DNA of 63,770 nucleotides, counting the filler, from Folioceros fuciformis (Eukaryota), in NCBI GenBank assembly GCA_049999805.1. It is 20 parts of 20 records of this genome, joined end to end, with 100 filler letters (N's around TTAATTAATTAA, not from the genome) between each part and the next. Parts side by side here need not be neighbours in the genome. Positions count along the whole stretch, not along the records: positions 6,656 to 9,149 come from JBNGIO010002348.1; 19 more parts are not named here. The stretch is one strand, 5' to 3'. Under the pieces are notes generated by a model. It was not told the DNA's origin and ran no database searches. It was given only the letters and a program-made list of their open reading frames with translations. How positions within the stretch are numbered: position 1 is the stretch's first letter; every line of letters starts with the position of its first letter. Of this stretch, positions 3,190-63,307 are shown one piece after another. The translations under genes were made by a program, and so were the position numbers.

Positions 3190-3289
3190 NNNNNNNNNNN
3201 NNNNNNNNNNNNNNNNNNNNNNNNNNNNNNNNNTTAATTAATTAANNNNNNNNNNNNNNNNNNNNNNNNNNNNNNNNNNNNNNNNNNNN
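3190..3289. other. Artificial contig spacer (first of 19)
   Basis: 44 N + TTAATTAATTAA (stop in all six frames) + 44 N. The same spacer starts at 6556, 9150, 12043, 13595, 15018, 16930, 19611, 27924, 30679, 34291, 40466, 45403, 48920, 51372, 55120, 57682, 59896 and 61699. Confidence 0.99.
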
Positions 3290-3403
3290 CCGGTGTAAGG
3301 CCTGCCCACAAGAAGCACCTTCGGATCCGAGTCCTGGGTAACCGCAAGCCTTGAAGCGGAGCTCCGGGGCTCGGAGAGCGCGAAGGACACGGCTTCCTGG
3401 GAG

Positions 3404-4969
3404 ATGGCATTGCAGCCCATGGCCTCTCCATCCGGATCCACGGAGGAGCTGGAGAGCGGGCCGGCGACGGCCGGCAACACCATCAAGGACGTCGATCACG
3501 GGCCGCCAACCACGTACCTTCAGCGCCGCCTCAACGTGTTAAACTTCAAGCGGCCCGACCTGGACCTGCTCAGCGAGGTCAGCGGCGCGCTGGGCGATCT
3601 GGGAACGTACGTGCCCATCACGGTGGCGCTCACGCTCTACAACCACATTGACCTGGGCACCACGCTCATCTTCAACGGCTTCTTCAATGTCCTCACAGGC
3701 CTGATGTTCGACGTGCCCATGGCGGTGCAGCCCATGAAGTCCATCGCGGCGGTCGCGCTCAGCACCAACAAGCTCACGGTTAACCAGATCATGGCGGCGG
3801 GCCTCTCCGTCTCCTTCATCCTCGTCTTCCTCGGCCTCTCGGGTCTCATGACCATCGTCAACTGGCTCATCCCACTGTCCGTGGTGCGGGGCATTCAGCT
3901 CACCCAGGGGCTACACTTCACCTTCACCGCCGTCAACTACATCCTCCACACGCAGGACTTCTCCAAGTCTAAGGCAACGGGGCCCAACCGGCCCTGGAAA
4001 GGATGGGATGGCCGGGTTCTGGCCATCTTCGCCTTCTGCTTCGTCGTCATTGTAAGCGGCGTGGGCGGGGAGTTCGGGAAGACAAAAAAGAAGACGAGCA
4101 CGGGCAAGGAGTCGTACGACGAAGAGTCAAACCAGGCCTTCGCATGCGCGGCCGCCAAGTCCAAGCACAGCAGCAGCCTGCCCAGTAGGCTGGCCAGGAA
4201 GGTAGCCGAGCTCAACGCCAAATTCTTCAAGACGGACGAGGAGATGGCGGAGGAGGACGCCCAGGGGAAGGGGCTGGCCACGGTGCCCTCCTGCCTCATC
4301 ATCTTCGTGCTGGGGATCATTCTGGCGTTTGCGCGCTACCCTAGCGTGGGCAGGAGCCTCAAGGCGGGGCCGGCTACCCCCAAGATCACGCACCCTACCG
4401 GCCACGACTGGCGGGAGGGTTTCATCCGGGGAGCTATCCCGCAGCTGCCGCTTTCCGTGCTCAACTCTGTCATCGCCGTGGTGAAGCTCTCGCAGGATCT
4501 CTTCCCTTCGAATCCGGATGTAACCTCTTTGCGCGTCGCCACCTCCGTGGGGATGATGAACATTGTGGGGTGCTGGTTCGGGGCGATGCCAGTCTGCCAC
4601 GGTTGCGGCGGGCTTGCTGGCCAGTACCGGTTTGGCGCTCGCACAGGGCTGTCCGTAGTCATGCTGGGCGCGGGTAAGATGCTTCTGGGCTTGCTGCTTG
4701 GGAGTTCGCTGACCGCGGTGCTGCAGCGCTTCCCCGTCGCGCTGCTGGGGGCGCTGCTGCTGCACGCGGGTATCGAGCTGGCCATGACTGTGCGGGACAT
4801 GAACTCGCGCAAGGACATATTCACCGTTCTCGTCATCACCGCAGTGGGGACACAGTGGAACAATCTCGCTTACGGCGTCCTATGTGGATTGGCCGTGGCT
4901 CTAGTGTTCAAGGCGAGGGCCATCAAGCTCAAGGTTGTGCTGCATCCTCGCAGCAAGCCCGAATCCTGA
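3404..4969 (+). CDS. MOT1: Molybdate transporter, MOT1 family (intronless, 521 aa)
   Basis: Family motifs GDLGTYVPI, PMAVQPMKSIAAVA, PQLPLSVLNSVIAV and MPVCHGCGGLAGQYRFGAR. Many hydrophobic segments; intact, GC3-rich ORF. Confidence 0.95.
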   Translation: MALQPMASPSGSTEELESGPATAGNTIKDVDHGPPTTYLQRRLNVLNFKRPDLDLLSEVSGALGDLGTYVPITVALTLYNHIDLGTTLIFNGFFNVLTGLMFDVPMAVQPMKSIAAVALSTNKLTVNQIMAAGLSVSFILVFLGLSGLMTIVNWLIPLSVVRGIQLTQGLHFTFTAVNYILHTQDFSKSKATGPNRPWKGWDGRVLAIFAFCFVVIVSGVGGEFGKTKKKTSTGKESYDEESNQAFACAAAKSKHSSSLPSRLARKVAELNAKFFKTDEEMAEEDAQGKGLATVPSCLIIFVLGIILAFARYPSVGRSLKAGPATPKITHPTGHDWREGFIRGAIPQLPLSVLNSVIAVVKLSQDLFPSNPDVTSLRVATSVGMMNIVGCWFGAMPVCHGCGGLAGQYRFGARTGLSVVMLGAGKMLLGLLLGSSLTAVLQRFPVALLGALLLHAGIELAMTVRDMNSRKDIFTVLVITAVGTQWNNLAYGVLCGLAVALVFKARAIKLKVVLHPRSKPES

Positions 4970-6655
4970 TCGTCCAAAGCCTTGCTGTGGGCCTGAATGC
5001 CTCCAAAACGCGGCTGGTCTTCGTCCGTTTCCCTATACATATACAGTGTGTGCAAGGGTTTGCTGTTGCAGGTACACACATTTTGAAACGCATGTGTGTG
5101 CCAGTGCTGCTTCACCTCGAAGACTGCCCACCAACTGTTACCGCATAGACTATGTTGTTGCGATCTTTCAATGTATCTACCACCTACTACCATTCTACTT
5201 GTTGCAGTACATTACATAGTGGTGTGAATGCCCGGAAGTATCAGCGTCTATGCTGTACTCCACAATCCACGACACGACACGCAACGCAAGTTTCTTCAAT
5301 TGTTTCGTACTTCCGTTTCCCTCTAGAAACGGAGTTGTCAAATTCTCAGCTTGCCTCGTTTGATTTCTGTACAAGTCACTTGTGCCTGCTTTCTCCAGCC
5401 GGGAAACACCTTTCTACCAGTAGAGACACGTGCTTCTCACTGCATACGTAGCCGTTCCCTTTCACTCGCGGAAGTTTTGCCAAACAGCTGCAGGTGGTCC
5501 AGTCAATTCCGCCTACTCGATCGAAACTGTATCGCATCGTCCCATTTCCATATTCTACGCTTTGCAAGATCCGGGAATGCAGGAGGTACTTCACATCAAG
5601 CTTCTGCTGCAACTGCGAACAGCAAAAAGGCCAGATTTTTTAGCATACCTACCCAATCCAGAAGAGTCTGCTCGGCTGTCGTAGCCCCCAAGCTTAGCTA
5701 TACGCCAAATGGACGCGCTTGTGTAAGAAGGCCGCTGTTAAGCATCACGTTGCGTAGATATTCGATGGGGTGCCTAGAGGCAGTGGATAGGTGGTCCAAG
5801 TGGACTGCAAGCACGCCAGGCATGTCCAAGTTGTTCCGCTTGCCAGAAATCCAAGATACACATTTCCATGTCATACGTCCTCCGTTCCTTTCTCCAAGCC
5901 AGAATCCAAAGAACTTGGACCTGGAGAGGTGGGGAGTCAGCACATTACACGGCGACCAGTGATCACTCTGCCGCAGGAAGGCAAGTTCATTTATGGGTAC
6001 CACTGCAGCGGAGGGGTAATGGAAATGACCGTTGTCCGGATCGATAAAACCTCCTTGCGCTCTACCGACTGCGTCTGCTCTAGGACGGCTTGTCATGTAT
6101 CCATTGCATGAAGCTATATGGGAGCTGAATGATCAATTCAGCGAAAGAGCCACACTCATCACTGCATTGATCAAAGCCCCGCACAGTCGTGGGTCCTGAA
6201 GAAGGAGGACGAAGTTTATTGTAATGCATCTGGGTCTGTCGTTGTCAAATTCTACAAATTCTGTGATATCGGTGACGGCCGTGATTCTGTACTTTTCTGC
6301 CACCAAGCGGAGCTGCAGCGCTTACCGAAAATAACGGCGGTTTGCTGAAGCCTGCCTTCCATGCCTTACAAGGGTTCGACCTTGCGTGTGTACACTCTCC
6401 ATACCTGTCGCAGTTCTCCACTCTGTCTCCAGGCAACAAACAGCCTTGGATCAATTACATGGCCGGCTTCACACTTCTATGTACGCAACCAGGCGTGCTG
6501 GCGTCGCAAAACTTTTGCCTCAGTCACGGCCTAAGACACGAGGACAGGATAATGGNNNNNNNNNNNNNNNNNNNNNNNNNNNNNNNNNNNNNNNNNNNNT
6601 TAATTAATTAANNNNNNNNNNNNNNNNNNNNNNNNNNNNNNNNNNNNNNNNNNNN

Positions 6656-7140
6656 AGAGTGGAAGAACCTGATGTTGTTCTCCTTGAGGAACAATTTGCT
6701 CACAGCCAGCGTGCCGGAAGCCATTGCCAGCTTGACGAAGCTCACCAACTTCACCATCTTCAACAACCTGGTGAGCGGGCCCTTCCTGCCGACCTTCGGC
6801 GCCAGCAGCCCGTTAAAGGACTTTGAGATAGCGTCCAACAACTTCTCCGGGCCCGTGCCCTGGGCCACATGCAACAGCGGCCAGCTAAGCACCTTCGCCA
6901 TCGAGTCCAACGCCTTCTCCGGGCCCTTCCCAGCCTCCTACGCCAACTGTAGCTCCCTCCACGGCCTCCGCATCGACAGCAACTACGTAAGCGGCAGCTT
7001 CCCCAAAGACCTCTGGGGTAGCCCCAGACTGGACTTCATCGACCTGTACAACCATCTCTTGAATGGCAGCATCCTGCCGGAAGCAGGCGCCTCCCCGAGT
7101 CACACCATGCTATTGATCAGCAACAACCGCTTCTCCGGCC
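6656..7140 (+). pseudogene. LRR receptor-like kinase ectodomain fragment (LRR-XI/HAESA-like), truncated by an insertion
   Basis: Plant LRR units (SNNFSGPVP, SNAFSGPFP, NCSSLHGLRIDSNYVSGSFP, LLISNNRFSG). LRR periodicity and high GC end abruptly at about 7140. Confidence 0.85.
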
Positions 7141-7542
7141 CGCCAAAAACAGCTTCCCTCCCGAATGAGGACTCTGATTCGCAGAAACCTATACATCCTT
7201 AATCGCGACCAGGATACACTACCGCTTGAAAATAACGAAAACTTGTTAGATGTTTAGATAAAAGTATTAAGTACAAACTGGTATGATAACTTTTGTATGT
7301 AGCGGCACACAAGTTTCGCTTTCCACTTGCCATTTATGTGACTTTGGTATTGTGCGCCGGTCTACAGGCGCACTTCCGCTTGTTTTAGGCCGATTGACTG
7401 GCAGTCTATCTCGCAACCCTTTTTGGAAAATGCAGATAGATATCGACAGGTGATAATTTTCAAACATAGGGTCACCTGATATGAGGTATAGCTCAAACAC
7501 TTGGCACTTTACATGGAATTGGATAACATGTGAATTACGTGA

Positions 7543-8489
7543 TACCCGCCATATTGCAAAGTTTTGTCATGTATTTGAATGCAATGACACCCACAAATTT
7601 GTTAGTACTTTTGAAAAAATTGATGACTACGTTTATACTCAACACTCTTTTAGGCCACATTTCGGGTTCTCTTGACAAAAATGCATGAAAATGTGGATAT
7701 CTGACACGAGTTTTCAGCGCCAAAATCTCGCGAAGCCCAAAATGGCGGAATACGCGTGTTTGGGTCAGGCAGTGTTGTATTTAACTGTTGGAAGTGCAAT
7801 TCACTCTGAAGCTCAGGACACAAAAAAGCTCCATTATTCGCGAATCAGGGATTCCTTCTTCCCCGAGTTATAAGGCAAGGTGTTGTGGTGAAGAAACATT
7901 TGTTCCACTCGGCAAATTCTCTAGTTATCTCGTCGTATCAAAAGCCCCTTGGTTTAATGGGTATGTTGGTGAATATGTTCTTCGCTGAAGGGGACTTGGT
8001 AGTGGATGCTTGCGTAGGATCTGGGTCATTTCTACAATTTGCGATTCAAAGAGGAAGGCATGTTGTCGCAGTGGATTTTGATATAAGATGTACCACTTAC
8101 ATCATGCAGCGGGTGAATGGCATAGGCTGTTTAGGCCATACTCTGATGAGGAGATCAGCACAGAGCATTTCTTGCACGGGCCCACTAAGTTTTGGGCCAA
8201 AGAAGTCTGCGCGGATGGTAACATGGATCGTCGGATGCAAGTATTCAGTTTGTTGGGAAATCAAGGAGAGATTCTTTCACAATCAGATGACAGACCAGCG
8301 GAAGACCTTTATGATATGACTATATGGAATGAGAATGGAACAATTCCGCCTCAGACTGTGGACAACCCGCATTTCTCTGTTATAGATGTGGAGGGGGATA
8401 ACTTCGGAGACATAGAGGGCCAGCAACTTAAAGACGTAGATGTTGTTGTCGATTCTGAGGCCAATCGAGACGTTCATGTTTTTGTTTAA
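7543..8489 (+). pseudogene. Decayed DNA amino-methyltransferase (N6-adenine/N4-cytosine, beta-class N6_N4_Mtase-like)
   Basis: YQKPLGLMGMLVNMFFAEGDLVVDACVGSGSFLQFAIQRGRHVVAVDFD matches motifs X-I-II (QKPxxL...GDxVLDPFxGSG...GRxxxGxE/D). Candidate motif IV remnant YPPY at 7543-7554 in the same frame. Stops and frameshifts; acidic tail in a shifted frame. Confidence 0.75.
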
Positions 8490-8610
8490 AGGTGATGTTG
8501 AGAGTAGTGGAAGTGGATGGTATAATATGATTATGAACATATTTGACTATGTCATTTTTCAATCCATGGGATGCAGATAGACATTTTCCTATCCTTTGAA
8601 CATAGACTTA

Positions 8611-8632
8611 GTGCACCGGTAGACCGGTGCAC
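8611..8632. repeat. Perfect 10-bp-stem hairpin
   Basis: GTGCACCGGT-AG-ACCGGTGCAC. Confidence 0.9.
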
Positions 8633-8776
8633 CGAAAGTAAGATGAGTAAAACGAGCGTAAGCGAGAGTATACAAACAACTTTCATAAGAAATAATTAGT
8701 TACAATCTCAGTGTCAAAAACATTTAAATACTGTCTATGTGTCTTTTGGCTAGACAACCTTAACCCGATAACCTAA

Positions 8777-9149
8777 TGTGGACTCCACATCCTGAATAGG
8801 TCCTTGGAAAATGGTAGGATTTCTCTTTTTGGGAATCTCTAAGTGAACCCTGTGGTGAAATAGTTAAAAGATTAGGAAAGATTAGTAGCTAGATTAATGG
8901 GGAGGTGAGATGTGTCTTTGAAGGGTTGCTGGAATGATCTGAGAGAAGGGATGGAATGATTTGAGAGAGGAGGGAGAGGGTTGAGAGGCACTGACCATTT
9001 TGGTAGTCTTGAGAGGTTGGTCAATTTTGGTAAGGGCACCCAGTGGTGTCCATGGGACACAACCCCTTTCAGGTCAAAACTAGGTTTGGGTCAAAGTTAG
9101 GGTTAGGTCAGAGTTAGGTTTAGGTCAGAATTAGGGCCGGCTTAGGTCA
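8777..9149 (+). mobile_element. Gypsy LTR 5' end, type D
   Basis: Starts TGTGGACTCCACAT as at 33983 and 44168. TTAGG-like array at about 9078-9149. Confidence 0.8.
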
Positions 9150-9249
9150 NNNNNNNNNNNNNNNNNNNNNNNNNNNNNNNNNNNNNNNNNNNNTTAATTA
9201 ATTAANNNNNNNNNNNNNNNNNNNNNNNNNNNNNNNNNNNNNNNNNNNN

Positions 9250-9361
9250 GTCGCCCCAGGGACTACCTCCCTCTGGACTACTCTTGGTTACCCACCGGGC
9301 TACCCTCCGTTGCTTTTCGAGCTACCTCCGTCGCCTGACGGTCTACCACTCGTGGGTCCCA

Positions 9362-9397
<36 letters not shown>

Positions 9398-12042
9398 GTT
9401 CCTTCTCTCTAGGGTTTTCTCTCCCTAGGGTTTCCTCTCTCCCTCCGGGTCGTTCCTACCCGACTAATTACCTCCTGCCCACGCATCCCCTTTTGTGCTT
9501 CCCATCCTTGGTTCACCACAAAACCGCCTCTCTCACCTCAGGAACAAGCGCACGCACACATGAACAGCAGCAATCTGTTGGACACATTCCACCCGCGTGA
9601 TCTCACACCTTAGATACACCCCCTGCAGTCTCAATTCAGCTTCTTCACAGCCTCTCCAGTCTCATCGCGACCAGTCACACATACACACCACGTCTCATTG
9701 CACCCCACACACATTACTCACCTCGCCTCCAAGGTTTCCCCGGCTTTGTTCTCTCTTACCCCACTCACCAGTTCTCTGTATACATTCTGCCCGTCTTAAC
9801 AGTCGTCGAATCACTTCCACTCCGCTTCACTTCCTGTTTCCACTCCTTTTGGCTTCCTTTTCGCATTCGCTCTTACCCACTACTCGGCCACTCGCTCCTC
9901 CTCCTTCTCACACACGCACACTCTCGCGCTCTCCTTTCTCCGGTTCTTCAGTCTTCTTTCTCAGTGATGCCCCTCCTGGGCTCCTATTAACGTTGAGGAA
10001 TGGTGAGGTACCAGGGCTAAGGGAAGAGGAGTCCCTTCCACTCCGAACTCGCGGATTCGGCTCCGACACCCGCACCACCCCACGTGATCACCTCAAGGAT
10101 AGCTGGGGAGCTTCTCTCCCACTCGGCGAGGCTCCTCCTCCTGATTCGTCCCCGGACCTGATCACGGAACGCCCACCACCTACACCCGCACCCGAGGTTG
10201 CTACGTGCGCTCGCTTGCCTGGACCTCCTGTCTGGCAACGGCCATTGCTAGGTCCCTGCAAGGTCGACTGTTCGGCTGGTTCTTGCTGATTTCTTAGGCC
10301 TTCAAACCGGCCTCTTGTACACGGTGATGGCGGTTTTTTCCGCCATAAAGTCTATCAGGCAGGGGAGCTGCGCTCTTAAATTCTAAGCGACTTAGGTCCA
10401 AATGAAGCACGCTAAAAAAATCCTATTCTAGCCTGCATTTACTATCGCCCTTTCCCACGCCGCTGGCGGCTTCCTCCTGGCCTTCGCACGTCACCCCTTT
10501 CCGCTCCTCCTCTCGCTCTTCTGCCCCTCCGTTGGTCCGGCAGATCCTCCCAGAGGATCTCCACATCACCGTTGCTACTGCTGGACCTGGCTGGCGGCAC
10601 AGGTGGGTCCCGCCGCTGTGGTCCACCACTCCTCCTCCTTCTCTGGTTGTTGAGGACAGCCACAGGCCCCCGTTCTACCCAGCGCCAGGCCTCCTCTTCC
10701 ATCAGTTCCTCCAGAATTGCCTTCGCATAGCAGTGGAGCAGTCTTGTCACCCACCAGCTGTAGTGGTAGAGTCCCAAGCGCATCCTCAACTGCAGGCCGT
10801 AGCACCGCGTCCCTCCTGTGCCCATACGTACATACAGAAACAGCTTCAGAACCCTGGCCCCTTCTACATACAGGCCTGGCACATAGGAGGCCTCCTCCTC
10901 ATACTGCAGCACAATCCGACCTTCTGTCATAACGAGGTGCTTACCCCGTCCTCCCTTGGGCTACCTCGGGTTGCCTGCTCCCCCTCCTGCTGGGGTACCT
11001 GAAGGTTCTCTTCCTCCCCAGCTGTTGCCTCCTCCGGCTCTGTCCTCCTGGTACGGGTCACCCTCCTGGAGCACCTAGGGGGCAGGCGCCCCTACTGCTT
11101 CCTCCTTCGTTTCCAGGGTTGGTTCTTCAGCTATCATGGGCCTTGCTGGGAAGCCGGTAACCCCGTCGGCTACCTGACTACCGTTCCCCTGGTTTGGCTA
11201 CCGGTAGCCCCTTCTACTATCGGGGTCGCCGACTGACTCGCACGCCCAGCCTTGCCCTTCCCCTTCACTCTCTCTCTGGCCTCATCCCGCTTCCGCTTGT
11301 ATCTGTCAGCCAACTTCTGAGCCTGCTCCACAGCGGCTATCTCCATCTCTTATGCCCTAGCCATTTCCTGTTGCATCTCCAGGTTAGTCTCGTGAGCCTC
11401 CCTCACCTGAGCTAGCAGGGTCCCCTGTTGCTCTTTCAGCGCCTGCATTTCAACCCTCGCCTCGCGCGCCTCTTCCTCGGCTTGAGCCTTCTCCCTGTCC
11501 AGGACCCACTGCTTCTCCTCCAGCAGTTGCCGCGCCGTCTCTGACTCCGCCATTTGCCTCCTTGCTTCAGCCTCTCGCTCACGAGCCTTCTCCTACTTTC
11601 CCCGAGCCTCGGACTCTCGCTCCGCTTATACACTTAACTAGGTCAGGGCCCTAGCAGCTTGATCCAGGAGGTATGCTTGGGCTTGCACCATCGCAGCAAT
11701 CAGCCCGAGCAGGTCCACCTCCTACACCCCTCCAGTGCCCATTCTTCTCGCCGTGATTTGTCTGCCCAGGAATTCTCGCAACTTGTCCAGGTCCCCCACT
11801 TGCAACCTCTCTCTGAGGCCTGCACCTGAAAATATCCTTCCACCTTGAGAAACCCTCTTGTGCTGAAACATGCCCTAACTTATCCTCCTGTCTGGAGGAA
11901 ACTGTGTCGGCTGCCATCACCTGATCCTGTGGCTCCTCGGGTCTTGTCTCACCCTGACCTTGCTCCTCCAACCTTCGGTCCTTGATTCCCTGGATAGCTG
12001 GTTCTCGTTCTGCCTCCTGCTGACCCGTCTGCTCCAGGGCTG
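9250..12042 (-). mobile_element. Type B element: 3' part of accessory ORF (coiled coil + conserved C-terminal domain) and downstream LTR-like region
   Basis: Near-identical to about 49098-50770 and homologous to about 37330-39300. Peptide YEEEASYVPGLYVEGARVLKLFLYVRMG. (CT)n tract near 9367-9394. Confidence 0.8.
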
Positions 12043-19548: not shown

Positions 19549-19753
19549 ACCCTGATTCAAGTTTCTTATAAGTTAGAGTACTTTATGTAAATAACTTGAC
19601 TATACTAACCNNNNNNNNNNNNNNNNNNNNNNNNNNNNNNNNNNNNNNNNNNNNTTAATTAATTAANNNNNNNNNNNNNNNNNNNNNNNNNNNNNNNNNN
19701 NNNNNNNNNNGAATTGGAGTGTGATATGGACGGTTCGGTTCGGTTCTTTGCAG

Positions 19754-21530
19754 GGCGTGCCTCGTGGATGCCGCGCTGGAGTCGGGCCAGATTTTTAAGG
19801 ACGCTGGCTTCAACTACATCAAGGAGGCCTGGGACAAGGGGGGCACGTTGCACCTCATCGGCCTCCTCAGTGATGGAGGTGTGCATTCCCGGAGCGACCA
19901 GCTGCTGGGCATCATACACGGGGCTTTCGATCATGGGTGCAAGAAAATCAGGGTTCATGTGCTGACAGACGGTCGGGATGTGCCTGATGGAAGCAGTGTT
20001 CAGTACGTGGGCCAGCTTGAGAAGGAGTTGGAGCACCTCCGGGGTCAGGGCTGTGATGCCCTCATCGCCTCTGGAGGGGGACGTATGTACGTCACCATGG
20101 ATCGGTACGAGGTGAGGTTCCCATGAGGCTCACAGTGTTCTTCAACCGCCTGGGTTTTCCATCCGTGGTTTGTTTCATCACCCAGGCCATTTATTGTTCC
20201 TGTTTGCGCATGCTTGTGTAGGCTGACTGGAAGATTGTGGAGCGTGGTTGGCATGCACACGTCCTGGGGGAGGCACCTTACAAGTTCGAGCACGCGCTGG
20301 ATGCCCTGGAGGTGATCAAGAAGAGAGACCCCAAAGTGAATGACCAGTACTATCCCCCTTTCGTGATTGTGGACAAGAAAGGGAACCCGGTTGGACCCAT
20401 TGTGGACGGAGATGCCGTGGTCATTTTCAACTTCCGTGCTGACAGAGTCATTGAGATCAGCAAGGCTTTTGAATACCCTCAGTTCGACAAGTTTGATCGC
20501 AAAAGATTTCCCAAGACCCACTTTGTAGGGCTCATGCAGTATGATGGGGATCTGAAGCTTCCTTCACGCTTCCTGGTGGCTCCTCCCGTCATTGAGAAGA
20601 CATCTGGACAGTACCTGGTGAAGAACAACGTCAGGACTTTCGCTTGCAGGTGAGCGTGATGCAGCATGTGGTGCAGTATCCTGCTCCCGAATTGGTGATG
20701 TTGGTGGCCTGACGCTCGGGTCTTGGTGCAGTGAGACTCAGAAGTTCGGACATGTCACCTTCTTCTGGAATGGCAATCGATCAGGAAAGCTGGATGATGA
20801 GCTGGAGCAGTACTACGAAGTGACCAGTGACAATGTTCCCTTCAACCAACTACCCAAGATGAAAGCTGCAGAGATCACCAAGGCTGCAAAGGATGCCATT
20901 CTCTCAAAGAAGTACGACTATGTTCGCATCAATTTTGCAAACGGCGACATGGTTGGCCACACGGGCGATCTGGAGGCGGTCCTTGTGGCTTGTGAAGCGG
21001 TGGACAAAGGTGTCAAGGTATGTGTGTGTGTCTCTCTCTCGTGATTTTCCACTGCCATGGCTGAGGAGGGAGCAGGCTCGCTGATATTTGCCTGATTGTT
21101 ACGATGCAGGAACTGTTGGACGCAGTGGAGAAGGCAGGAGGCATCTGGCTTTTGACTGCCGACCATGGAAACTGCGACGATATGGCTCAGCGAAAGAAGG
21201 ATGGCTCTCCATTACGTAATGCAGAGGGCAAAGTTGAACCTTTGACCTCTCATACCTTAGCACCGGTACATCTCAGTCCCTGAACCTCCTCGTGGTTTCT
21301 GTGTCAGGGTGCAGCCATTTATTTCTGAGACAAAGTGTCGGAAGGTAATCCATGTTGGTGCGTGTTTGTAGGTTCCCATCACATTTGGGGGTCCAGGGCT
21401 CCCACCCTCCATCAAGTTCCGCACTGACTTACCAAATGCAGGACTGGCGAATGTGACGGCAACGTACATGAACCTGCTGGGCTTTGAGGCTCCGACGGGT
21501 TACGAGCCGTCGCTTATCACCCACCTGTAG
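19754..21530 (+). CDS. iPGAM: 2,3-bisphosphoglycerate-independent phosphoglycerate mutase, last five exons (5' end missing)
   Basis: GT-AG exons 19754-20111, 20222-20649, 20732-21017, 21110-21265 and 21372-21530. Motifs LSDGGVHS, DGRD, FNFRADR, SETQKFGHVTFFWNG, NGDMVGHTG and TADHGN. Confidence 0.96.
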
Positions 21531-22541: not shown

Positions 22542-23810
22542 TCACACCGATGCCAGCCAATCGGGTTCGAACGGAAAGCGGACCAACTGGTACGCCCAAC
22601 CTTGACCGAGGTAGGGCCCGAACAGCAAGCGCTCCCAAGTGTCTTGACCAAAATTATACACAGCCATTTGCAGGGAGCCAACAAAGATCCTGGAAAAGAA
22701 GAGGCGCTCCTTGTCCGCGACACACATGAAGCTATCCCCACAAGGCCCGCACACCTCGAACGGCATCTCGGCCAGCAGATCCCAGTCCAGCGCCTGCGAA
22801 GCGGGATCCCATTTGAACACCGAGATGTGCTTGAGGTTAGCGGGCATCTCATCACGCTCGAGCACAAACAGCAGATGGCCCTCCCAGTCCAGGACGTTGG
22901 TCACGGACTGGGCGCGCTCCCGAGGAATGATCCTGGGGCTGGCATCCCATTGCCTCCTCCGCACGTCGTAGCTCATGATGCCGCAATTTCCCGCCGCGTC
23001 CATCCCCAGGCAGTAGAGGATGCCATTGCAGTAGGCGCTGCTGCACTTAACCAAGGGGTGCAGCGGGGGCCGTCCCGCCACAGCCCACACGTTCTCCGAG
23101 GACTCGAACACATGCGTGCGCTGCTCGTCATCGTCGTCCACCACCACAATCCAGTACCTGTTGCGGGCCTTGTCAGGGATGAGGCGCAGCAGGCTGTACT
23201 CCTTCACCAGAAAGCCATACTCCTCCGGAAAATCCACGGGCACGGGGCTATGCAGCGTGTCGGGGAGCTCCCGCACCTGCCCCGAGAGCGGATTGCACAC
23301 AACGTGCAGCATCCGCTTCTCCCTGCTCACGTAGGTGAAGAGCAACAATCCCCCTGCCCCGGTGACGCTAACGTGGCCCAGAGTGTGCGGGAAGCGCGGG
23401 GGCGGCGGCAGCTTCTGCCACCTCCTGTGCACGAAGTCGTAGGCCACCGAGTCCCTCCTCCCCAGCTCCACCCTCCTCCCCCCGGGCAGCCTCGGCCCAG
23501 CCCCCCGGTCAGGCCCCTCGTCCACGTCCGCCCCTAAGACCTCGTCTGCCCGCAGCAGCACAAACAGCCCCAGATACCTGTTTTGCACCGAACGCTCCGC
23601 GAACATGGATCGGAACTCCTGCGACAGGAAGCACGAGTTCCACCTCTTGCACAGCGTTCGCGCTTGAAAGAGGCGAGACAGCGGCAGGCGCGCTATCACC
23701 CTGTCTATCAGCGGCTCCGGCAGCTCGCTCCACCTCTCCCCGCGCCGCCCGCCCCACCTCTGCTCCATCTCTTGTGCCTTCCCCGCCTCCATGTCCTCAC
23801 CAATTCCCAT
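22542..23810 (-). CDS. F-box protein with C-terminal kelch/FBA-like beta-propeller (intronless)
   Basis: F-box WSELPEPLIDRVIARLPLSRLFQARTLCKRWN, plus GAGGLL, VCNPLS and CNGILY. First in-frame ATG at 23810; the frame stays open to 24005. Confidence 0.9.
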   Translation of the reverse strand: MGIGEDMEAGKAQEMEQRWGGRRGERWSELPEPLIDRVIARLPLSRLFQARTLCKRWNSCFLSQEFRSMFAERSVQNRYLGLFVLLRADEVLGADVDEGPDRGAGPRLPGGRRVELGRRDSVAYDFVHRRWQKLPPPPRFPHTLGHVSVTGAGGLLLFTYVSREKRMLHVVCNPLSGQVRELPDTLHSPVPVDFPEEYGFLVKEYSLLRLIPDKARNRYWIVVVDDDDEQRTHVFESSENVWAVAGRPPLHPLVKCSSAYCNGILYCLGMDAAGNCGIMSYDVRRRQWDASPRIIPRERAQSVTNVLDWEGHLLFVLERDEMPANLKHISVFKWDPASQALDWDLLAEMPFEVCGPCGDSFMCVADKERLFFSRIFVGSLQMAVYNFGQDTWERLLFGPYLGQGWAYQLVRFPFEPDWLASV

Positions 23811-24442
23811 TCCCTTGGCCCCTGCGCAAGCGCAAGCGGAAGCCCAAGCCCAAGCCCCAGCCACGGCGAAGGAGCCAGCCCAGCCCACAGGAGGAGGGAA
23901 GTGGCATTCTGTACACCTGTCCGCTCCGAAACGGCCCCCGTAACGCAGCGACGCAGCCGCAGCCGCAGGCCAGGTACCGCCTACCAAGGACCCTCCTGAG
24001 GACACGGGAAGGAAAAACTCGGTCAGGAGTTAGGACGGCCTCTGCCTCTGCCCTCCAAACTTGCTTTTTTACGCTGCCTCACTTCGTCTAGCTGCAACTG
24101 ATCACACCCCTGAAGTAACCAACAACCAGTGGGCGGACGGCCCACGGGATAAAATAACACTATGTATTTACCTGGAACCGACTCCGTATTCCTTCAATCT
24201 CGGGAAGATCCCTTCGGCACTGCAGTCGTGTATCCACCTGCACCCGCGGGCCTGCGGCTGGGGCTGGCCTAATATTCTTCTCACACACACTGTACATGCC
24301 TCTTTTTCCTCTTGAGCCGTCCTTTAACCACGTACATTACCCTTTCCCTGCGTACACTACACACCTACGTACACACATTCACACACTCTTAGGTCTAAGT
24401 GCACTTTTCCAATAGAGAAACATGGGAGCTGCCACAACTGTC

Positions 24443-30778: not shown

Positions 30779-33700
30779 TTTGGGATCACCTTGGACTGCA
30801 ACATGGTAGGGGCTGAAGCAGCAAATGTGGAAGGATAGGCTGTTGGAGTTGCTGAAGGGAAGGGCCAGGAAAAAGCCTCCCATGCCAAGAGGGGTGTGAA
30901 GGAAGGTGAGATGAGGGAAGGGGGCTGTGACCCAAGGTCTGAAGGGCCTGCTGGTGAGGATACAGAGGTCACTAGATTCACCTCTGAAGACCTATTCAGG
31001 GCATGGGGAATGAGGGAGGAAGATCCCCGAAAGCTGGAAGAAGGGTTTGGAGTCAGCTTTGCACCTGTGGAGCGTGAATGGGTGGAGGCTGATGAAATTA
31101 AGGATGTGGAGGTGTTGCCGGGCAAGGTGCTGAAGTTTTCCAAACAGCTAGATGCCAAATTGGAGGAGGGAATAAAGCAACTCCTGGCTGAGTTCATCGA
31201 TGTGTTTGCCTTTGAGGTGACGGACGTGAAGGGAATTCCCAAAGAGTGGGGGGAGCACAAGATCGACTTGGAGCCAGGCACTGTCCTCGTTCAAATTCCA
31301 CAGTACAAGATGAATCCAAAATACTCCATGAAGGTAAAGGAACAGCTGGAGCAGTACTTGAAGGCAGATGTGATTTTTCAGATTGTGAACTCAGATTGGG
31401 TGGCCCCAATCGTGGTGGTGCCCAAGAAACAGCCGGGGAAGATCCGGGTGTGCCAGGATTGGAGAAGGTTGAACAAAGCCACCAAGAAGGATCATTTCCC
31501 CTTGCCATTCATTGACAACATTCAGGATTTGGTGGCTGGCCGCATGATTTACTCCTTTTTGGATGGCTATTCTGGTTACAATCAGCTGTCCCTAAGGGAG
31601 AGTGACTGGCCATTGACAGCCTTCACAACTGATTGGGGGACATTCGCCTACAAGAGGAGTGCTTTTGGGCTGACAGGAGCACCGGGGCCCTTTATGCGTA
31701 GCATGTACAAGATCTTCAAGGATTTCCTCCACAAGTTCCTAGAGGTGTTCATAGATGATTTTTGTGTGTCTGGAGGGGTGGAGTAGCATCTGGAGCACCT
31801 AAGGCTGTGCTTGGCCAGGTGCCGTGAGACGCAGCTTTGTTTGCATTCGGAGAAATGCTATTTTGGCATGGTTGAAGGGATCTTGCTAGGTCATAGAATT
31901 TCAGCACGGGGCATTGAAGTGGACCCGGACAAGGTGAAGGTGATTGCTGCCTTGAGGGCCCCACACTCAAGGAGCTGCGTGGATTCCTTGGGATGGTAGG
32001 ATACTACCGCTGGTTCGTGCCAAATTTTGCTAGACGAGCTGCCCCTTTAACGAGCCTATTGAGGAAGGAGCAATCTTGGGAGTGGACAGCGGTGAGGGAG
32101 GCTGCGTTTCAGGACTTGAGGACCACTCTTGTGACAGCACCAACACTTAAGGGGCCTGATTGGGACAAGAAATTCCATGTGTACGTGGATGTTTCAGCCT
32201 TTGCCATTGGGACAGTCCTTAGCCAACGGGATGAGAAGGGGAGGGACTACCCAATCTACTATGCTGGACGTCAAGTTACGGAGGTTGAACGCAAGTACAC
32301 CACAACCGAGAGGGAGGCACTTGGCATGGTCTACTCTTGTCGTAAATTCCGCCACTACCTCCTCTCCTATGAGTTTGTCTTCCATGTTGATCATTTTGCT
32401 CTCAAGCACTTGGTCAACAAGGCAGACCTATCGGGCCACATAGCTCGCTGGATCTTGCTCTTGTAGGAGTTCACATTCACCGTGGAAACAAGGGAAGGGC
32501 ACAGGCATGTGGATGCTGATTTTCTATCCAGGCTGAAAATAGAGAAGGTGGTTCAGGACCAAGAAGATGATTTTCTGGATGAGGCATTTTTAGCAGACCT
32601 AGTGGAGAAGGAGAGGGCCAAACCAAATGTTAGGTTGCCAAGAGGTGAAGGTACAGCACCAAATGAGAAGGGGAGAAGAGGGCTCCGTAAGCCTTCCTAC
32701 CAAGAGGTGTCTGATTTTTTAGGCACGGGGGAATTTCCAGTTGATCTCACACGGCAGCAGCAGCGGCTGTTCTTGTACTTCACAAGGCTGGTGGTTAAGT
32801 ACAAGGGCAGGCTGTATCGCACAGGGGCTGATGGCGTGGAGAGGTTGTGGGTCAAACTTGGCCAAGTAGAGCAAGTTATCAGCTCCCTACATGAGGGAGA
32901 GGCTGGAGGCCATTATGCAGCCCATGTGACCTGCAGAAAAATTCTGGTAGCAGGGTATTGGTGGCCAACAATGCATGCTGATGCTGGAGAATTCATCAAG
33001 AGGTGTGATGCATGCCAAAGGGTGGGGAAGCCTACTAGGACCACACAATGGCCATTGGTCCCCATCCTAGCCCTAGCACCATTTGAGAAGTAGGGGATTG
33101 ATTTTGTAGGACCAATTCAGCCCAAGCCCAAGGGAAGGCAGAACCAATACATCCTGGTGGCAACTAACTACTGCACACGCATGGTGGAGGCCCAAGCTTT
33201 GCCCGTGGACACAACAAATGTGGTGGCCCAATTTTTGTTTGAGCAAATCATCACAAGGTATGGGTGCCCGTTGGAGCTGGTGAGTGATAGGGGGACTCAC
33301 TTCATCAATGAAGTGGTCAAGCACATGACTGAATACTTCAATATCAATCATAGGAAGACCACTCCCTACAACCCTGAGGCCAATGGACTCACGGAGAAGG
33401 CTAACGGGCTGTTGTGCAAGATTCTCAGCAAACTCACCGTCACCTATGCTCATAACTGGGATAGGAAACTCCATGCAGCCTTGTGGGCGTATAGGACTGC
33501 TGAGAAGGTTACTACCCAGTAGACCCCTTATCACCTCACCTATGGACACTCACCGGTCATGCCCATCGAATTTGAGGTACCCACCTTGAGAATGCAGGAG
33601 AGCAACCGATTGCATGTGGAGGAGAGACAGTTGGAGAGGTTGACCAGTTTTTTGCAGCATGATGAGGACAAGGGACAGGCGATGGCTGTTTTCCTTGATG

Positions 33701-33945
33701 TCCAAGAGAGGAGGAAGAAGTGGCATGACCAGAGGTTGCGTAAACAAGAGTATGTTGTGCCTGGAGATTTAGCCTTGCTATATGACAATAGGTACATGCA
33801 CTTTCCAGGTAAGCTTCATTTGAGATGGATGGGACCTTACAGGGTGCTGCAGGTGTATGAGAATGGGTCCATTCAACTGCAGCACCTCAACGGCCCTAAC
33901 TTGCCAACCAGGGTTAATGGCTGGCGTGTGAAGAAGTATTATTAG
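30779..33945 (+). mobile_element. Ty3/gypsy pol (RT-RNase H-integrase), non-chromovirus type, decayed
   Basis: KDHFPLPFID, FLDGYSGYNQ, FIDDF, YVDVSAFAIG, CDACQR, LVSDRGTHF and GPY. Ends VNGWRVKKYY with no chromodomain. Stops and one frameshift. Confidence 0.95.
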
Positions 33946-33964
33946 TAGTTGGTGAGGACGCCAA

Positions 33965-34290
33965 CAAATGAGAAGGGGAGTATGTGGACTCCACATGCTG
34001 AACAGACCCCTGGGAAATGATGGGTTCTCTTTTTTTTTGGATCTGTGAGTGAGTGTTGTAAAGGAAAGGTTAGAAGATTCGGTTAGATTAGAGTTAGATT
34101 AGAGTTAGGGTTAGGATTAGGTCGGACTTAGGTTTAGGAATTTGACAAGTGGAGGGTTCTGTCTAAGGTGTGCTAACTTGGTTAGGCAGTGACAGGGGTT
34201 CCGGGCCAAGGGAGTATAAGAGGCCAGGCCTGTTATTGAGGGGGGAGGTTTTTTTGGTGAGAGCTCCCTTGACCTTGTGTGCAGGCTGCT
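33965..34290 (+). mobile_element. Polypurine tract and 3' LTR start (type D)
   Basis: CAAATGAGAAGGGGAG-TA, then TGTGGACTCCACA at 33983. TTAG(G/A) array at about 34068-34138. TATAAGAG at 34215. Confidence 0.9.
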
Positions 34291-35313
34291 NNNNNNNNNN
34301 NNNNNNNNNNNNNNNNNNNNNNNNNNNNNNNNNNTTAATTAATTAANNNNNNNNNNNNNNNNNNNNNNNNNNNNNNNNNNNNNNNNNNNNGTTATGTAAG
34401 AGTCTACCGGAGGTCAACCTCCTCCAGACTTACATCGATCCCCACTTTCCTTTTCTAAACCGGGCACCTTCCCTTCCCTCTTACCACGAGGGTCCGCTGG
34501 CTTTGAGAAGTAAATACATGAGAAGGCGCTGCTGTTCTCTAAGATTAGATTAGTGTTCGAAGGGAATAATATATTGCCCAATTCTTATATGCCTCATGAT
34601 GGATGGGGTAGATGGGTTTCTCTTGTTTTTTTATCTACATACCTATCTTTCATATTTTTACATAATGCAAGATAATAAAGTAAAATTTTTCTACTTAGGA
34701 AATAAGATGGGATATTATCTACCCCAAATGAGGTGAGACAAACTACCAAAGGTGATGGGTCATCGAGGGCTATTGCTTAAAGCCACTAAGCCTAAAAACT
34801 ATCCACAACACTCAAGACATCGTGATCTTGGAGGAGGAAGGGTCACTAAGCCTAAAAAGTATCAACAACTCAAGACATCAAGATCTAGGAGGAGAAAGGA
34901 CTATATGTGACATTAGCCAATGCCCATGCACAATGCAACGGAAAACCTATTTTTTTGTGAAAAAAAAAAATCAAATTCATACAACCTGAGGCTGACAAGG
35001 GTTACAAAGGGGACACAAAGATGCCACTAGCGCTATATCTCACCACCCATGAACCCCATGACAAAGAACCACTTGTCTTGTGCAATCTCCCAAACAATCT
35101 CTCACGGTGATCTTGTTTGAGAGGTGAATCGCCCTCCTCAAATACACATATATAGCCTTAAGTTCCACCCATGTTCTGATACTATATGGCGATCAACTAA
35201 CTATTTCAAACATAGCTATATACATAATATAGATAACTATTCCTATCTAAAACAAACATTACACTTAAAAAAATATGTCAATGCATAGGTGTAAACTCTG
35301 ACCTTTGCTTCGC

Positions 35314-35395
35314 TGTCACTTGTATGATAGTAAGGACAAAGGGTGTTCTAAGATGTCACTTGTATGATAGTAAGGACAAAGGGTGTTCTAAGATG
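35314..35395. repeat. Exact 40-bp tandem duplication
   Basis: TGTCACTTGTATGATAGTAAGGACAAAGGGTGTTCTAAGA x2. An imperfect duplication of about 60 bp also lies at about 34783-34900. Confidence 0.9.
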
Positions 35396-35399
35396 CCAT

Positions 35400-36250
35400 G
35401 ACTAAGCCCATCTCCGAGGCATGTCACAAATTGCAATGTCTCCTAGCTGTCACTTTCACGACAATTGTTGTGTGAGCTGATTATTGAATTGCTTAGTGCT
35501 GCTTGGCCTGTTTGAGATCGCCGTTTGTTGTCCTCCCATGGCCGGCACACACTCCTACCAAGAATCATGTGCATGGTTAAGCAATAGAGAACAAGTAGAC
35601 AATAAGGCATGCAGAGAGGGGGGAAGGTGAGGCGGAGCACATACCTGTGTTGCCTATCAATGAGCAATGTTTCCAGCAACGCATGCTCTTGTTATTCGCC
35701 CAACAACAAGGCATCTCCTAAACATTTCGGGCGTTTGGATCTTGGAATCCATGTGCGTGGTTTAGAGGCGAGGACACCTTCAACCGAGGCGCTTGTGCTG
35801 GCCTCATCGTCGATGACAACCCATTCAATTGACGATTGGTTTCTACTAGAATCACCTTATGTCGCGGGTGGGACATTTGTCGACCGAGCTTGCAAATCCA
35901 TGGTATTTGCTTGAAGCGGCTTGTAAGTAGAAGAGGGTAGTTCAACCTCACCAAGTTTGGTGGGGTGGATGGAATCAACATTCGTTATGAAAGGGACCTT
36001 GGTGTAGGTTCCTACGAGCTCTTCTGGCATTGAAGCAATAACAACATCCATGAATGCGTCTTCTCCTATGATTTACGAGCAAGCTATTTGAGGGTCGTTG
36101 TGACATTCCATCGGTTGTATGGAATGCAGGTAGGTTGTGCATGCCAGGCACAATAGGAGCAATGTTATAGGGCACTGCCCAGGGAAAAACTCATGTTTGT
36201 TGAGCCTTGAGAGTTGTCTTCATGCTATTTTCCTCTGGTTGGTAATTTTT
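35400..36250 (-). mobile_element. Highly degraded retroelement pol-like remnant
   Basis: Only faint RT/RNase H-like peptides in broken frames. Confidence 0.3.
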
Positions 36251-36516
36251 TTGCTCTAGCCTCATTAATGAGGTGACGTGTGTCTCCACCTCCCCTTTTA
36301 GTTTCCTAATAAGCGTGCATTTGGTTCATTCCAACATAGTTGCCATATTCACATCCCTCCTTTGTCGGCCACCAACCATGCATGTTTTTGAAGCTATCCA
36401 TCCACCCTTGCTTTCCTCCTTTCCCCCATGGATTTGGGCCTAATCCCCCATTTTTTTAGTAGCGTGCATTGCACAGCTAGAGCTGCCTTTGATGGCAGAA
36501 AATTTCCATGCTAGCA

Positions 36517-39500: not shown

Positions 39501-39730
39501 ACCCGTCTCCTCTTGGCGGGAGTCTTTTTCCTTGACCCGGCCTTCCTCTTCTGCCTGGTGGGGGTCCTCTCCTCTGAACTATTCGCACCCCCCGACTCCC
39601 AGCTGCTCGAGTCGGCTCCTATTGGTTCGGCGGGCTTCCACTTTACGTCCCTTATCGGCCTCCACATATGCAGCGAGGCTAGCACTTCCAACTCGGACAC
39701 GAGATTAGTGTAGCCATAGATATGAATGAG
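36517..39730 (-). mobile_element. Type B element: most of the accessory ORF through to an LTR 3' terminus
   Basis: ORF about 39730 to 37775 with basic NLS-like KRKAGSRKKTPAKRRR, coiled coil and C-terminal domain. Terminus ...CCCCACA at 36517 is homologous to 48021. Confidence 0.85.
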
Positions 39731-40465
39731 TGTGGAGGCAAAACCCCGGGCACTGATTGCCAACGGGTTCCACCTTTAGTGGCCACACTTATCCCACTGT
39801 CGTTGAGACATTGGGTTTCGTTCCCACGAAGGAGCGATGGGGTTCCTTGCTGCTGTGGATGGAGGGTCGGACTTGATCGACTCGATGATGGATTCGAGGG
39901 CTCCCCTCTAGCTCCGATCAGGCGTAGAACAGGCCTCGCTGTCCAGCGGTCAGCTGCACCTCTCTCGGTGCCCACAAACTCACTCCAGTCACTACAACGA
40001 CTCTAACCTCTCAAATCTGCGACTTCCCTCACACACTTCACTCACTCTCTCACTCCAGCACCAACACCAGCAACTAACAATGACACCACTACCTTCTACA
40101 CTTCCCTACTGACTCCTCCTACTCGGCAAGAGTCACTAGACTAACCCCAAAGGAAAGAAAGAAGGAACACACTCCCCTCTTGGATATCTCCCCCCACAAC
40201 CTTACCAGACGCCATGAGACATGGCCGGCCTACAACACTTGACCAAGCAAGGAACAAGAGTGGACAGGTCGAGAGAAAGACACATCCTTTACAATCAAGA
40301 GCTAGGGGCAAGCCCCTACACCCTGGTCATTACACCTTGTGATCCTACCAAACACTATACAGCCGGCAACACACGGCTTGCGATCCTACCGGACGTTGCA
40401 CAGCCGGCAACACACTGTAGGTCCTAAACCAAGCAGGGACAGACCACAAGAGCTCATGAAGAGAG
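39731..40465 (-). mobile_element. LTR 3' end, type C, inserted into the type B ORF
   Basis: TGTGGAGGCAAAACCCC on the + strand; near-identical to 45503-46174 and 60919-61698. Confidence 0.88.
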
Positions 40466-40565: not shown

Positions 40566-41452
40566 GTACGATCTGGTTAATACTGTCACTGGCCATTCTT
40601 GCCACCACTCAAGGTTGACACTCAATCCTTTCTTGAGTACTCACACCTGATAAATGTCTGAAAGAACCAGACTGCTTCTGACTGGAGTTTTACTCACAAG
40701 ACCTTAAGTCTCTTCTTCCTAAGAGCAATCTGGTGCGGAATCACGCTGCCTTGCGTGAACCAGATTGTCTCATGCTCCGTGTCCTTACAGACTCTTGACT
40801 GTCTGCCCACAAAGCTCCCGTGAGATTTCCTGTCAATTCCTTCCTTGCTGCCAAGCTAGCGTTAGCACACTTTCTTGTAGCTGCTGAGGCTATTGCAGCT
40901 GTTGCCTCCACTTGTCAGCCCTTCCACAGAGCTCTGGGGATCAACAGCTAGTCCAGTAAGCTGACAGGGCCTTGTCGCCCTTCTCCTCACTTCCTGCACA
41001 CACCGATATGAGAGTTAGCTGCCGGGACGCTTGCTGCCGATCTCCCTCCAAGCTGCTCCAACTTCTCGTAGCTGCTCTAGCTTCTGGTGTGCACTCTTGC
41101 TGCCTCTTGCAGCACCTCCTATGCCGATCTTGCACCGCCTGCACCGGGCTCTGATACCATGTCAATAGGATTGACTCCAATCTACATGCAAGTGTAGGAG
41201 AGGAGAGGAGAGAAGAGAGGGTGGTATTGGTGATCACAACCATGAAAACAATACACATCACCACTGTCTTACTATGGAGGTCCGAGGTCTCCATTTAAGT
41301 AGTACATTTAGGGCTACACAACTTCCAGGTTCAATATGGGATAATCTACACTATCCTAAGTTCACTAATAACTAGAACTAGTCTAGTATGAACCCAACTG
41401 GGATAACTAACACCACATGAGTTTAGCTCATATAGAGCTCGATAACTCAACA
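40566..41452 (-). mobile_element. Copia-type 5' LTR (41160-41452), tRNA-iMet PBS and leader
   Basis: GCTCTGATACCA at 41148-41159. LTR reads TGTTGAG...TTGACA on the minus strand. Confidence 0.8.
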
Positions 41453-48021: not shown

Positions 48022-48123
48022 GCAAGTCTTGATTCTGATGAAGATGCAAATTCTCAAGGTCATGTGACCTCCTCCAAGAACGCACGCACACGACGTAGTC
48101 GTGTCCTCTAATCACCTATAACA

Positions 48124-63226: not shown

Positions 63227-63307
63227 CACACCACCGTAGCCTCCCTGCTCGAAGCATGACTCGAGCCGGAGCCAGACTCAAGCTGCTTCCCCTCCACCTT
63301 GTCCCTG

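Follow-up and report, generated by a model that had tools for sequence, protein, structure and literature searches.

Does a short contig of the Folioceros fuciformis genome (NCBI GenBank assembly GCA_049999805.1) carry the remains of a bacterial-type DNA amino-methyltransferase gene, and can a YPPY tetrapeptide encoded upstream of them be taken for the decayed catalytic motif of an enzyme that wrote N4-methylcytosine (4mC) or N6-methyladenine (6mA)? Both ideas came from a sequence-only reading of a 63,770-nucleotide stretch of this genome, here called the window, in which the locus lies on the contig at positions 6656-9149 (JBNGIO010002348.1, 2494 bases). To our knowledge, bacterial-type amino-methyltransferases are very rare in eukaryotes, and the two studied cases, the sperm 4mC of Marchantia and the 4mC of bdelloid rotifers, have each opened a new chapter of epigenetics. 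Our analysis partly confirmed the observation and partly supported its interpretation. The segment 7867-8489 is probably a dead, 5'-truncated copy holding the last ~205 codons of a beta-class amino-methyltransferase-like gene, situated in a mobile or otherwise amplifying repeat, with YPPY being a coincidence.

The block that was read by eye as binding S-adenosylmethionine (SAM) is real. It extends as ...YQKPLGL...EGDLVVDACVGSGS...RGRHVVAVDFD within a stop-to-stop open reading frame (ORF) at 7810-8319 on the plus strand, which also includes ...VISSYQKPLGLMGMLVNMFFAEGDLVVDACVGSGSFLQFAIQRGRHVVAVDFD..., and this ORF matched the Pfam family N6_N4_Mtase with 27.5 bits (cut-off 26.7, E 3.7e-6), its residues 43-92 aligning on positions 164-213 of 221, that is, on the last quarter of the family, the C-terminal SAM-binding part. 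The second-best family, FtsJ, fell below its cut-off (22.4 vs 24.1) and generic methyltransferase families were also lower and under their cut-offs. A profile of the nearest relatives recognized the same ORF with an E-value of 1.2e-27, positions 145-230 of the profile lying on ORF residues 20-105. Moreover, HMMER searches against 1.84 billion representatives returned 43 matches at E<=1e-3, three of them at E<=1e-10, the best being P0001 (45% identity over 85 residues, E 3.7e-13), and when the 43 relatives were placed back onto the window with tblastn the matches were confined to ~7867-8145. The order of motifs is YQKP (7936-7947), motif I as DACVGSGS (8005-8028) and AVDFD (8068-8082), and all three align with the family profile and with M.MboIIA-type sequences. 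A word-index search with the ORF among longer proteins gave zero matches, and two further searches of this kind, which started from relative P0003 and from the family alignment, contributed just the relatives P0044-P0048, the family being very sparse there. On sequence similarity, the SAM-binding block is thus a member of the N6_N4_Mtase (PF01555) superfamily, and the claim that the contig holds a broken copy of such a gene stands on the Pfam and HMMER matches.

The copy can be followed from its first homologous residues to its stop codon. Similarity begins at 7867, where VIRQGVVVKK faces the relatives' NVFRExAVExK, and the C-terminal half of the gene then runs in frame 1 of the plus strand through YQKP, motif I and AVDFD as far as 8132. 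Sibling copies are available from a search of sequencing runs, in which parts of the contig were found in five runs from two studies; the best two runs, bearing the same organism label, contained 0.44 and 0.41 of the contig words, and short assembly contigs of four runs were placed on the 2.5 kb at likeness of at least 90%. Compared with these copies, the contig has two extra bases at 8133-8134 that shift frame 1 to frame 3 and are missing from all four covering read contigs (one from run X1, two from X2 and one from X3). Without them, frame 1 fuses to a 135-codon frame-3 ORF (8082-8489). Reading through with an X at the break raised the profile score from 95.0 to 103.5 bits, a value that none of 20 shuffled tails reached (best 97.5), and gave a gapless alignment of ...QRVNGIGC-X-PYSDEEISTEHFLHGPTKFWAKEVC against the profile's ...Rinsleslpdedeeigeee.ladaaklfskev. 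An earlier candidate site for the frameshift, after QRVN at ~8118, scored 98.5 bits, inside the shuffle range, and was discarded. The gene continues in frame 3 at 8136-8489 (+) as PYSDEEISTEH... and an acidic tail that ends ...VVVDSEANRDVHVFV before a TAA stop at 8487-8489. The tail alone showed non-significant similarity to the tails of the relatives (p >=0.12), and by eye the distance from the '(P)DS' motif to the VVVDSEANRDVHVFV-stop end is about that of the relatives' '...VPDS...' ends. The ~205 C-terminal codons are therefore open save for one 2-base insertion, and the catalytic half is absent. Since this half is missing and the segment is joined to a receptor-kinase exon fragment at 7141, the copy cannot encode an enzyme.

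The relatives indicate what kind of gene the parent may have been. N6_N4_Mtase was the best Pfam family in all 15 relatives scanned and was above the cut-off in 14. They have in common the blocks (V/I)(N/S)xYQKP, FSxxGDW(V/I)LDxCSGSG and GRN(V/C)xAVDxD, followed by LPxExxEIG and a long acidic tail, and in the alignment these blocks were not seen in the ordinary bacterial and phage enzymes among the HMMER matches. The 43 matches include 19 with YQKP, five with H/Q/A-QKP and 10 with the prokaryotic T/SQKP. In a 38-row tree built on the C-terminal 92 residues (the row of P0001 being left out of the reading for its wrong QKP cut and long branch), 27 rows including the window formed one branch with support 96/96, separate from the 10 T/SQKP rows, and the window clustered with P0003, P0002, P0006 and P0044 at 91/81. 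Only one of the 30 relatives looked up has a named organism, Ginkgo biloba (Gb_37443, P0004), the others coming from unannotated assemblies as singletons or clusters of at most three. Some ORFs break inside the domain where others continue: both P0002 and P0006 begin at '...VCKG', P0045 and P0060 both stop at '...VELK', and P0059 diverges after 'SFGGL', patterns that look like the effect of introns on stop-to-stop gene calls. Additionally, a pattern scan of 185,579 prokaryotic species genomes found nothing close (three weak generic loci), and a scan of IMG/VR viral sequences found 19 loci of generic similarity with 26-38% identity over ~50-100 residues. The clade of the parent gene thus appears, from these sequence comparisons, to be eukaryotic, and it would be a modestly novel variant within the PF01555 superfamily; the label 'bacterial-type' fits poorly, as the clade of the nearest relatives is separate from the prokaryote- and phage-type matches and its named member is from Ginkgo. 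Two candidates were set aside: the one locus of the metagenome scan (L020) is on a contig of bacterial origin whose class I methyltransferase is unrelated, and P0012 (4661 amino acids) is a false match with immunoglobulin-like repeats.

Considering the fold, the family profile spans the whole domain of M.MboIIA (E 9e-15), M.BceJIV, DpnA, CcrM and RsrI, and matches the bdelloid enzyme N4CMT more weakly (E 5e-8). The fold was examined on the relative P0003 and not on the window fragment; its AlphaFold model had a mean predicted local distance difference test score of 62.7, with a core at 80-97 and disordered tails. In Foldseek, the best matches of the model (E 2e-13 to 3e-10) were CcrM, M.MboIIA, M.BceJIV, bdelloid N4CMT (structure 8s9m, E 1.6e-11), M1.HpyAVI, RsrI and PvuII, and among the matches listed, to rank 33, all were beta-class DNA methyltransferases acting on adenine N6 (N6A) or cytosine N4 (N4C), including one putative DNA modification methylase. 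Judging from this model, the family has the beta-class DNA amino-methyltransferase fold. The parent gene would accordingly resemble the beta-class type II enzymes (M.MboIIA, CcrM, M.RsrI, M.BceJIV and DpnA/M1.HpyAVI for N6A; M.PvuII for N4C) in its fold, in the permuted order that sets the catalytic half with motif IV before the SAM-binding half with motif I, in the QKP block, in the GSG of motif I and in the acidic AVD-x-D. It would differ from them in having YQKP instead of HPTQKP, GDW(V/I)LD-x-C-SGSG at motif I, long acidic tails, an apparently eukaryotic distribution and D[L/I]P[R/H/Y/S] instead of (D/S/N)PP(Y/F/W), while the window copy differs further in the lack of the catalytic half.

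This last difference bears directly on the activity that was proposed. The profile alignment sets 'vvDiPrglnv' over 'viDPPYNLSK' of M.MboIIA, which identifies the D[L/I]P[R/H/Y/S] position, 145-160 residues upstream of QKP in the relatives, as motif IV. Nine relatives cover it, reading DLPRG in four (P0001, P0003, P0022 and P0045/P0060), DIPYG in three (P0027, P0042 and P0058), DIPHG in one (P0004) and DIPST in one (P0036). The aspartate and the second proline are kept in all nine, the first proline is replaced by leucine or isoleucine in all nine, and the aromatic residue is kept in three; (D/S/N)PPY occurs in none, a result set beforehand as speaking against a writer of 4mC or 6mA, and that proposal is weakened by it. 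The aromatic residue of motif IV stacks on the flipped base. The nearest relatives of the window have arginine at this position, and the missing aromatic residue makes 4mC or 6mA writing less likely for them, as far as sequence can tell. Two prokaryote-type matches read DLPYG and DIPYN, which suggests that the D[L/I]PY forms may still be catalytic.

The remnant is also part of a larger repeated unit that begins at a sharp boundary. The left part of the contig (6656-7140, +) is a fragment of a plant leucine-rich repeat (LRR) receptor-kinase ectodomain exon, recognized by Pfam LRR_8 (E 1.4e-9), by a 72-base periodic repeat at 6836/6908/7124 and by a search of PDB sequences, in which GSO1 (E 4e-75) and FLS2 (E 4e-72) were matched and PEPR1 and MIK2 as well. 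Its reading frame is open from the contig start, crosses the junction and meets a stop at 7200-7202, the LRR similarity breaking off mid-repeat at ~7141. The GC content is 0.59 in 6656-7140 and 0.416 in 7141-8776, which bears out the earlier description of AT-richer DNA that cuts a plant receptor-like kinase (RLK) exon on one and the same contig. At the breakpoint, 7141, five contigs of X1 and four of X2 run left with a different and mutually consistent sequence (agreement 0.93-0.95), indicating that the repeat normally extends leftward and that the window copy is truncated there; the 24-base consensus of these loose ends is not present in the window. In a paralogue, the junction of LRR and repeat is bridged by a 260-base contig of X2 that spans 7049-7307 and has 18 differences. 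The junction is thus not an assembly accident, with the proviso that the runs may include the assembly's own data, and the chimerism at 7140/7141 that could have overturned the sequence-only reading was not shown.

The reads further reveal how far the unit is repeated. Contigs at 90-100% likeness numbered 363 in X1 and 498 in X2, distributed over the identity classes 99+, 95-99 and 90-95% as 104/96/163 and 127/145/226, respectively. Inside the gene, up to 11-12 different contigs carried a letter other than that of the window at single places (e.g., 8186), and the differences between copies were mostly transitions. In the bins of 7916-8503, window-identical contigs had a depth of 4.5-11.7 compared with summed depths of ~80-460, a sum that is not a true copy number and is taken to mean only that many diverged copies exist. 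Repetition extends to the non-coding flanks 7141-7866 and 8490-8755, and the 3' flank (8490-8776, +) is a still moderately repeated unit in which each bin is covered by contigs at least 90% alike. Consequently, 7141-8776 belongs to a set of diverged copies in the genome of this plant, from which it follows that the gene most likely rode on, or was copied within, a mobile or otherwise amplifying element, one copy of which would have been truncated at 7141 and joined there to the LRR receptor-kinase exon fragment. The many diverged copies of 7141-8755 in reads of the same organism agree with the suggestion that the DNA is repeated and probably mobile and, together with the Pfam and HMMER relatives, with the view that a free bacterial contaminant is unlikely.

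Two palindromes bracket the methylase remnant. The first, the 23-base GTGCGCCGGTCTACAGGCGCACT at 7352-7374, is an inverted pair with 87% complementarity, and a similar one, with the GTGCRCCGGTMTAC core, lies in the 3' flank at 8610-8632. The motif is absent from the rest of the window, and its four strand-matches compare with 0.5 expected, none of 100 shuffles reaching four; read contigs turn back at 7351-7375. The palindromes may mark an element boundary or serve as a hairpin signal. From 8777 to the contig end at 9149 follows the left end of a different and very abundant repeat, for which the summed depth is ~3300-8100, the upstream values being in the tens to hundreds. Its loose ends before 8776/8777 do not agree with one another (agreement 0.48-0.51), which indicates many different flanks, and the repeat is also found in four other contigs of the window, 40566-45402 (its 3603-3731), 30779-34290 (its 3204-3360), 55220-57681 (its 817-932) and 61799-63770 (its 540-628).

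Copies of this kind could also belong to a multi-copy host gene family of tandem or segmental duplicates, of which the contig would hold the last exon and the preceding intron, cut by a rearrangement beside the LRR-RLK gene, while other copies may work. A pyrimidine run and AG at 7851-7867, read by eye directly before the start of homology, resembles a splice acceptor, and 7141-7866 may therefore be an intron of the parent gene or a spacer; the Ginkgo gene model, the absence of transposon hallmarks among the features found and the junction-bridging paralogue, in which the LRR-plus-repeat arrangement is itself duplicated as in a segmental duplication, fit this explanation too. We nevertheless consider it unlikely, given that the many diverged variants include the non-coding flanks (7141-7866 and 8490-8776) as well as the coding part, that silenced repeats typically show such transition-rich divergence, and that the looked-up relatives, being singletons or small clusters, are not a conserved orthologue set.

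A still less probable explanation is the original one, according to which the contig holds a decayed but once complete bacterial-type N4C/N6A methyltransferase gene of a horizontally acquired, 4mC- or 6mA-writing family, with YPPY as its motif IV. The tetrapeptide is indeed encoded at 7543-7554 and shares the frame of the ORF, as described, and the distance is 132 codons upstream of QKP instead of about 150, which is roughly the place of motif IV in the relatives; the fold of the family is, besides, that of the DNA N6A/N4C enzymes. In shuffled sequences, an xPPY within 150 codons in that frame appeared in ~1/100, or in 2-5/100 when all three frames were counted, placing the chance of its occurrence at ~0.01-0.05, a figure that is uncommon yet not compelling for a motif found post hoc, by looking for it. 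The surroundings give it no support: the frame reads '*IT*YPPYCKVLSCI*', with stops one and four codons before YPPY and eight codons after it, and 7141-7866 carries stops in all three forward frames. A profile of the N-terminal part of the family, run against the complete six-frame set of 3335 window fragments, found nothing above noise in 7141-7866; the whole-family profile gave only negative scores on the 25 fragments upstream of the homology, and the profile of the closest subfamily had no match in 7141-7866. A frame-2 fragment at 7676-7870 ('MWISDTSFQ...LYLTVGS'), likened by eye to the relatives' 'CVWHKTNV...FITVG', proved non-significant in seven shuffle tests (p 0.07 for P0006, 0.03 for P0022 and 0.13-0.89 for five others). 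The copy thus has no detectable N-terminal half and no (D/S/N)PP(Y/F/W) motif IV N-terminal to motif I, and the whole of 7141-7866 (+), YPPY codons included, is a part of the repeat lacking detectable coding similarity, even though the C-terminal half has stayed open for ~205 codons. Considering also the motif IV of the nine relatives and that the nearest relatives are not bacterial-type, the interpretation of YPPY as a decayed DPPY or SPPY is not supported, and it is probably a coincidence in non-homologous, probably intronic or spacer, DNA.

The remnant could alternatively be a relic of an endogenous insertion of a giant virus, resembling the nucleocytoplasmic large DNA viruses, that carried a DNA methyltransferase. 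DNA methyltransferases are numerous in algal giant viruses, and insertions of this kind are known from the genomes of bryophytes and lycophytes. The IMG/VR loci are generic, the contig has no other viral gene, and the many diverged copies speak for an amplification inside the plant genome, which leaves a viral origin very improbable. That the locus is an assembly chimera or a contaminant joined to plant DNA, as might be imagined from the short contig (2494 bases) and from a junction at a branch point of the read graph, with loose ends at 7141, is hardly credible, because a paralogous contig bridges 7049-7307, runs of two studies labelled with the same organism carry parts of the stretch, window-identical contigs cover 8191-8684 and the relatives are not bacterial-type.

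A truncated copy of an amplified eukaryotic gene therefore remains the reading we favor. Its homology, its frameshift, the missing N-terminal half and the presence of many copies were observed directly, and the carriage by a mobile element, the intron and any activity of intact family members are inferred. Beyond the proviso on summed depth, several points weigh against the reading. Carriage by a mobile element is suggested by copy number alone, and we found no transposase, terminal repeat pair or target-site duplication; neither the contig nor the other 19 contigs showed a transposase, the 40 longest ORFs scanned comprising copia/gypsy elements and host genes only. The window itself may have been assembled from data that are among these runs, and an error of assembly, as opposed to a mutation, could account for the two bases added at 8133-8134. 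The eukaryotic nature of the clade is drawn from the Ginkgo member, this plant copy, the ORF-break patterns and weak negative scans of prokaryotic and viral sequences. Finally, an in-frame xPPY in the right region is not common by chance (~0.01).

Enzymes of the PF01555 type in eukaryotic genomes offer the natural comparison. MpDN4MT1a/b of Marchantia (bioRxiv 10.1101/2021.02.12.428880) and N4CMT of bdelloids (PMC8885841) are described as eukaryotic 4mC writers of bacterial origin, with MpDN4MT1 having TSPPY and clustering with prokaryotic N4C enzymes (bioRxiv 10.1101/2021.02.12.428880) and N4CMT having a chromodomain and reportedly no eukaryotic homologues (PMC8885841). The clade discussed here likewise consists of PF01555-type sequences in eukaryotic genomes, and SPPY was found in none of the 43 matches nor in the added relatives, and the chromodomain, C-terminal in N4CMT, in none of the 20 relatives scanned. 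The remnant is not of the Marchantia DN4MT1 type, from which it is set apart by the description of MpDN4MT1, nor of the bdelloid N4CMT type. A different precedent is PAG2, an accessory gene with PF01555 fused to SET that is carried in red algae by DDE-type DNA transposons, namely Plavaka, Mutator, Zisupton and Fanzor-bearing ones, most copies being degenerate (bioRxiv 10.1101/2025.02.11.637652). PAG2 resembles our case as a PF01555 methylase-like gene in amplified eukaryotic mobile DNA with mostly degenerate copies; the comparison is one of description only, and it differs in the host, a red alga as opposed to the land-plant-type genome here, in the transposase, not seen here, and in the SET domain, found in none of the 20 relatives scanned. 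By analogy, PAG2 is the closest biological precedent. Within the library searched, literature on this clade or on plant transposon-borne PF01555 genes consisted of the Marchantia, bdelloid and red-algal cases only.

Fusions of a ParB-like N-terminal domain with PF01555, as in methyltransferases of phages and plasmids, were also considered, and the sole trace of one was in the Ginkgo relative P0004. Its residues 1-400 form an N-terminal extension with a weak match to DUF6551 (E 0.019, below the cut-off), a family that we take to be ParB-like, and on visual inspection a stretch of the extension resembles ParB; P0060 does not share this extension.

It is conceivable, and offered here as a tentative idea, that an undescribed clade of beta-class homologues, in which DPPY became D[L/I]P[R/H/Y] and which was amplified as cargo of a mobile element, is present in land plants (here this organism and Ginkgo) and in other eukaryotes. 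The product might then be an element-encoded accessory factor that marks or shields the element, either, in the DIPYG forms, as a writer of 6mA or 4mC or, in the DLPRG forms, as a pseudo-enzyme that binds SAM and DNA. If true, this would parallel the PAG2 cargo of the giant transposons of red algae. A further eukaryotic clade that is multi-copy in a plant genome and has an altered catalytic motif could be the source of a non-canonical DNA mark or a transposon-carried pseudo-enzyme, which makes the family moderately interesting. The locus itself is not, since a dead fragment teaches little and its value is that of a pointer to the family; it also cautions that a four-residue motif should not be taken for a catalytic site unless the surrounding sequence supports it.

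Regarding the rest of the window, it is made of 20 separate short contigs (1.3-8.2 kb) chained by 19 spacers of the form N44-TTAATTAATTAA-N44 (for example 3190-3289, 6556-6655 and 9150-9249), and features that flank a spacer are therefore not genomic neighbours. The window is a fragmented plant nuclear assembly: the gene scan, which took in the 40 longest of 121 ORFs of at least 100 amino acids, showed plant-type genes (a MOT1 molybdate transporter, an F-box protein and iPGM) and pieces of copia/gypsy retrotransposons in the other 19 contigs. An Rfam search of the contig 6656-9149 gave zero matches. The abundant repeat that begins at 8777 ends in degenerate tandem units of 17 bases and of 6 bases, GTTAGG-like, that resemble decayed telomere-type repeats. 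Four GC-rich contigs (0.57-0.58) at 9250-12042, 49020-51371, 34391-40465 and 45503-48919 have a 1-1.7 kb repeat in common, with 74-90% identity, and this repeat contains long proline/serine-rich open frames on both strands with no Pfam match. On further separate contigs, a MOT1-type molybdate transporter ORF of 556 amino acids lies at 3299-4966 (+), exons of iPGM at 19725-21041 (+) and the F-box protein at 22545-24029 (-).

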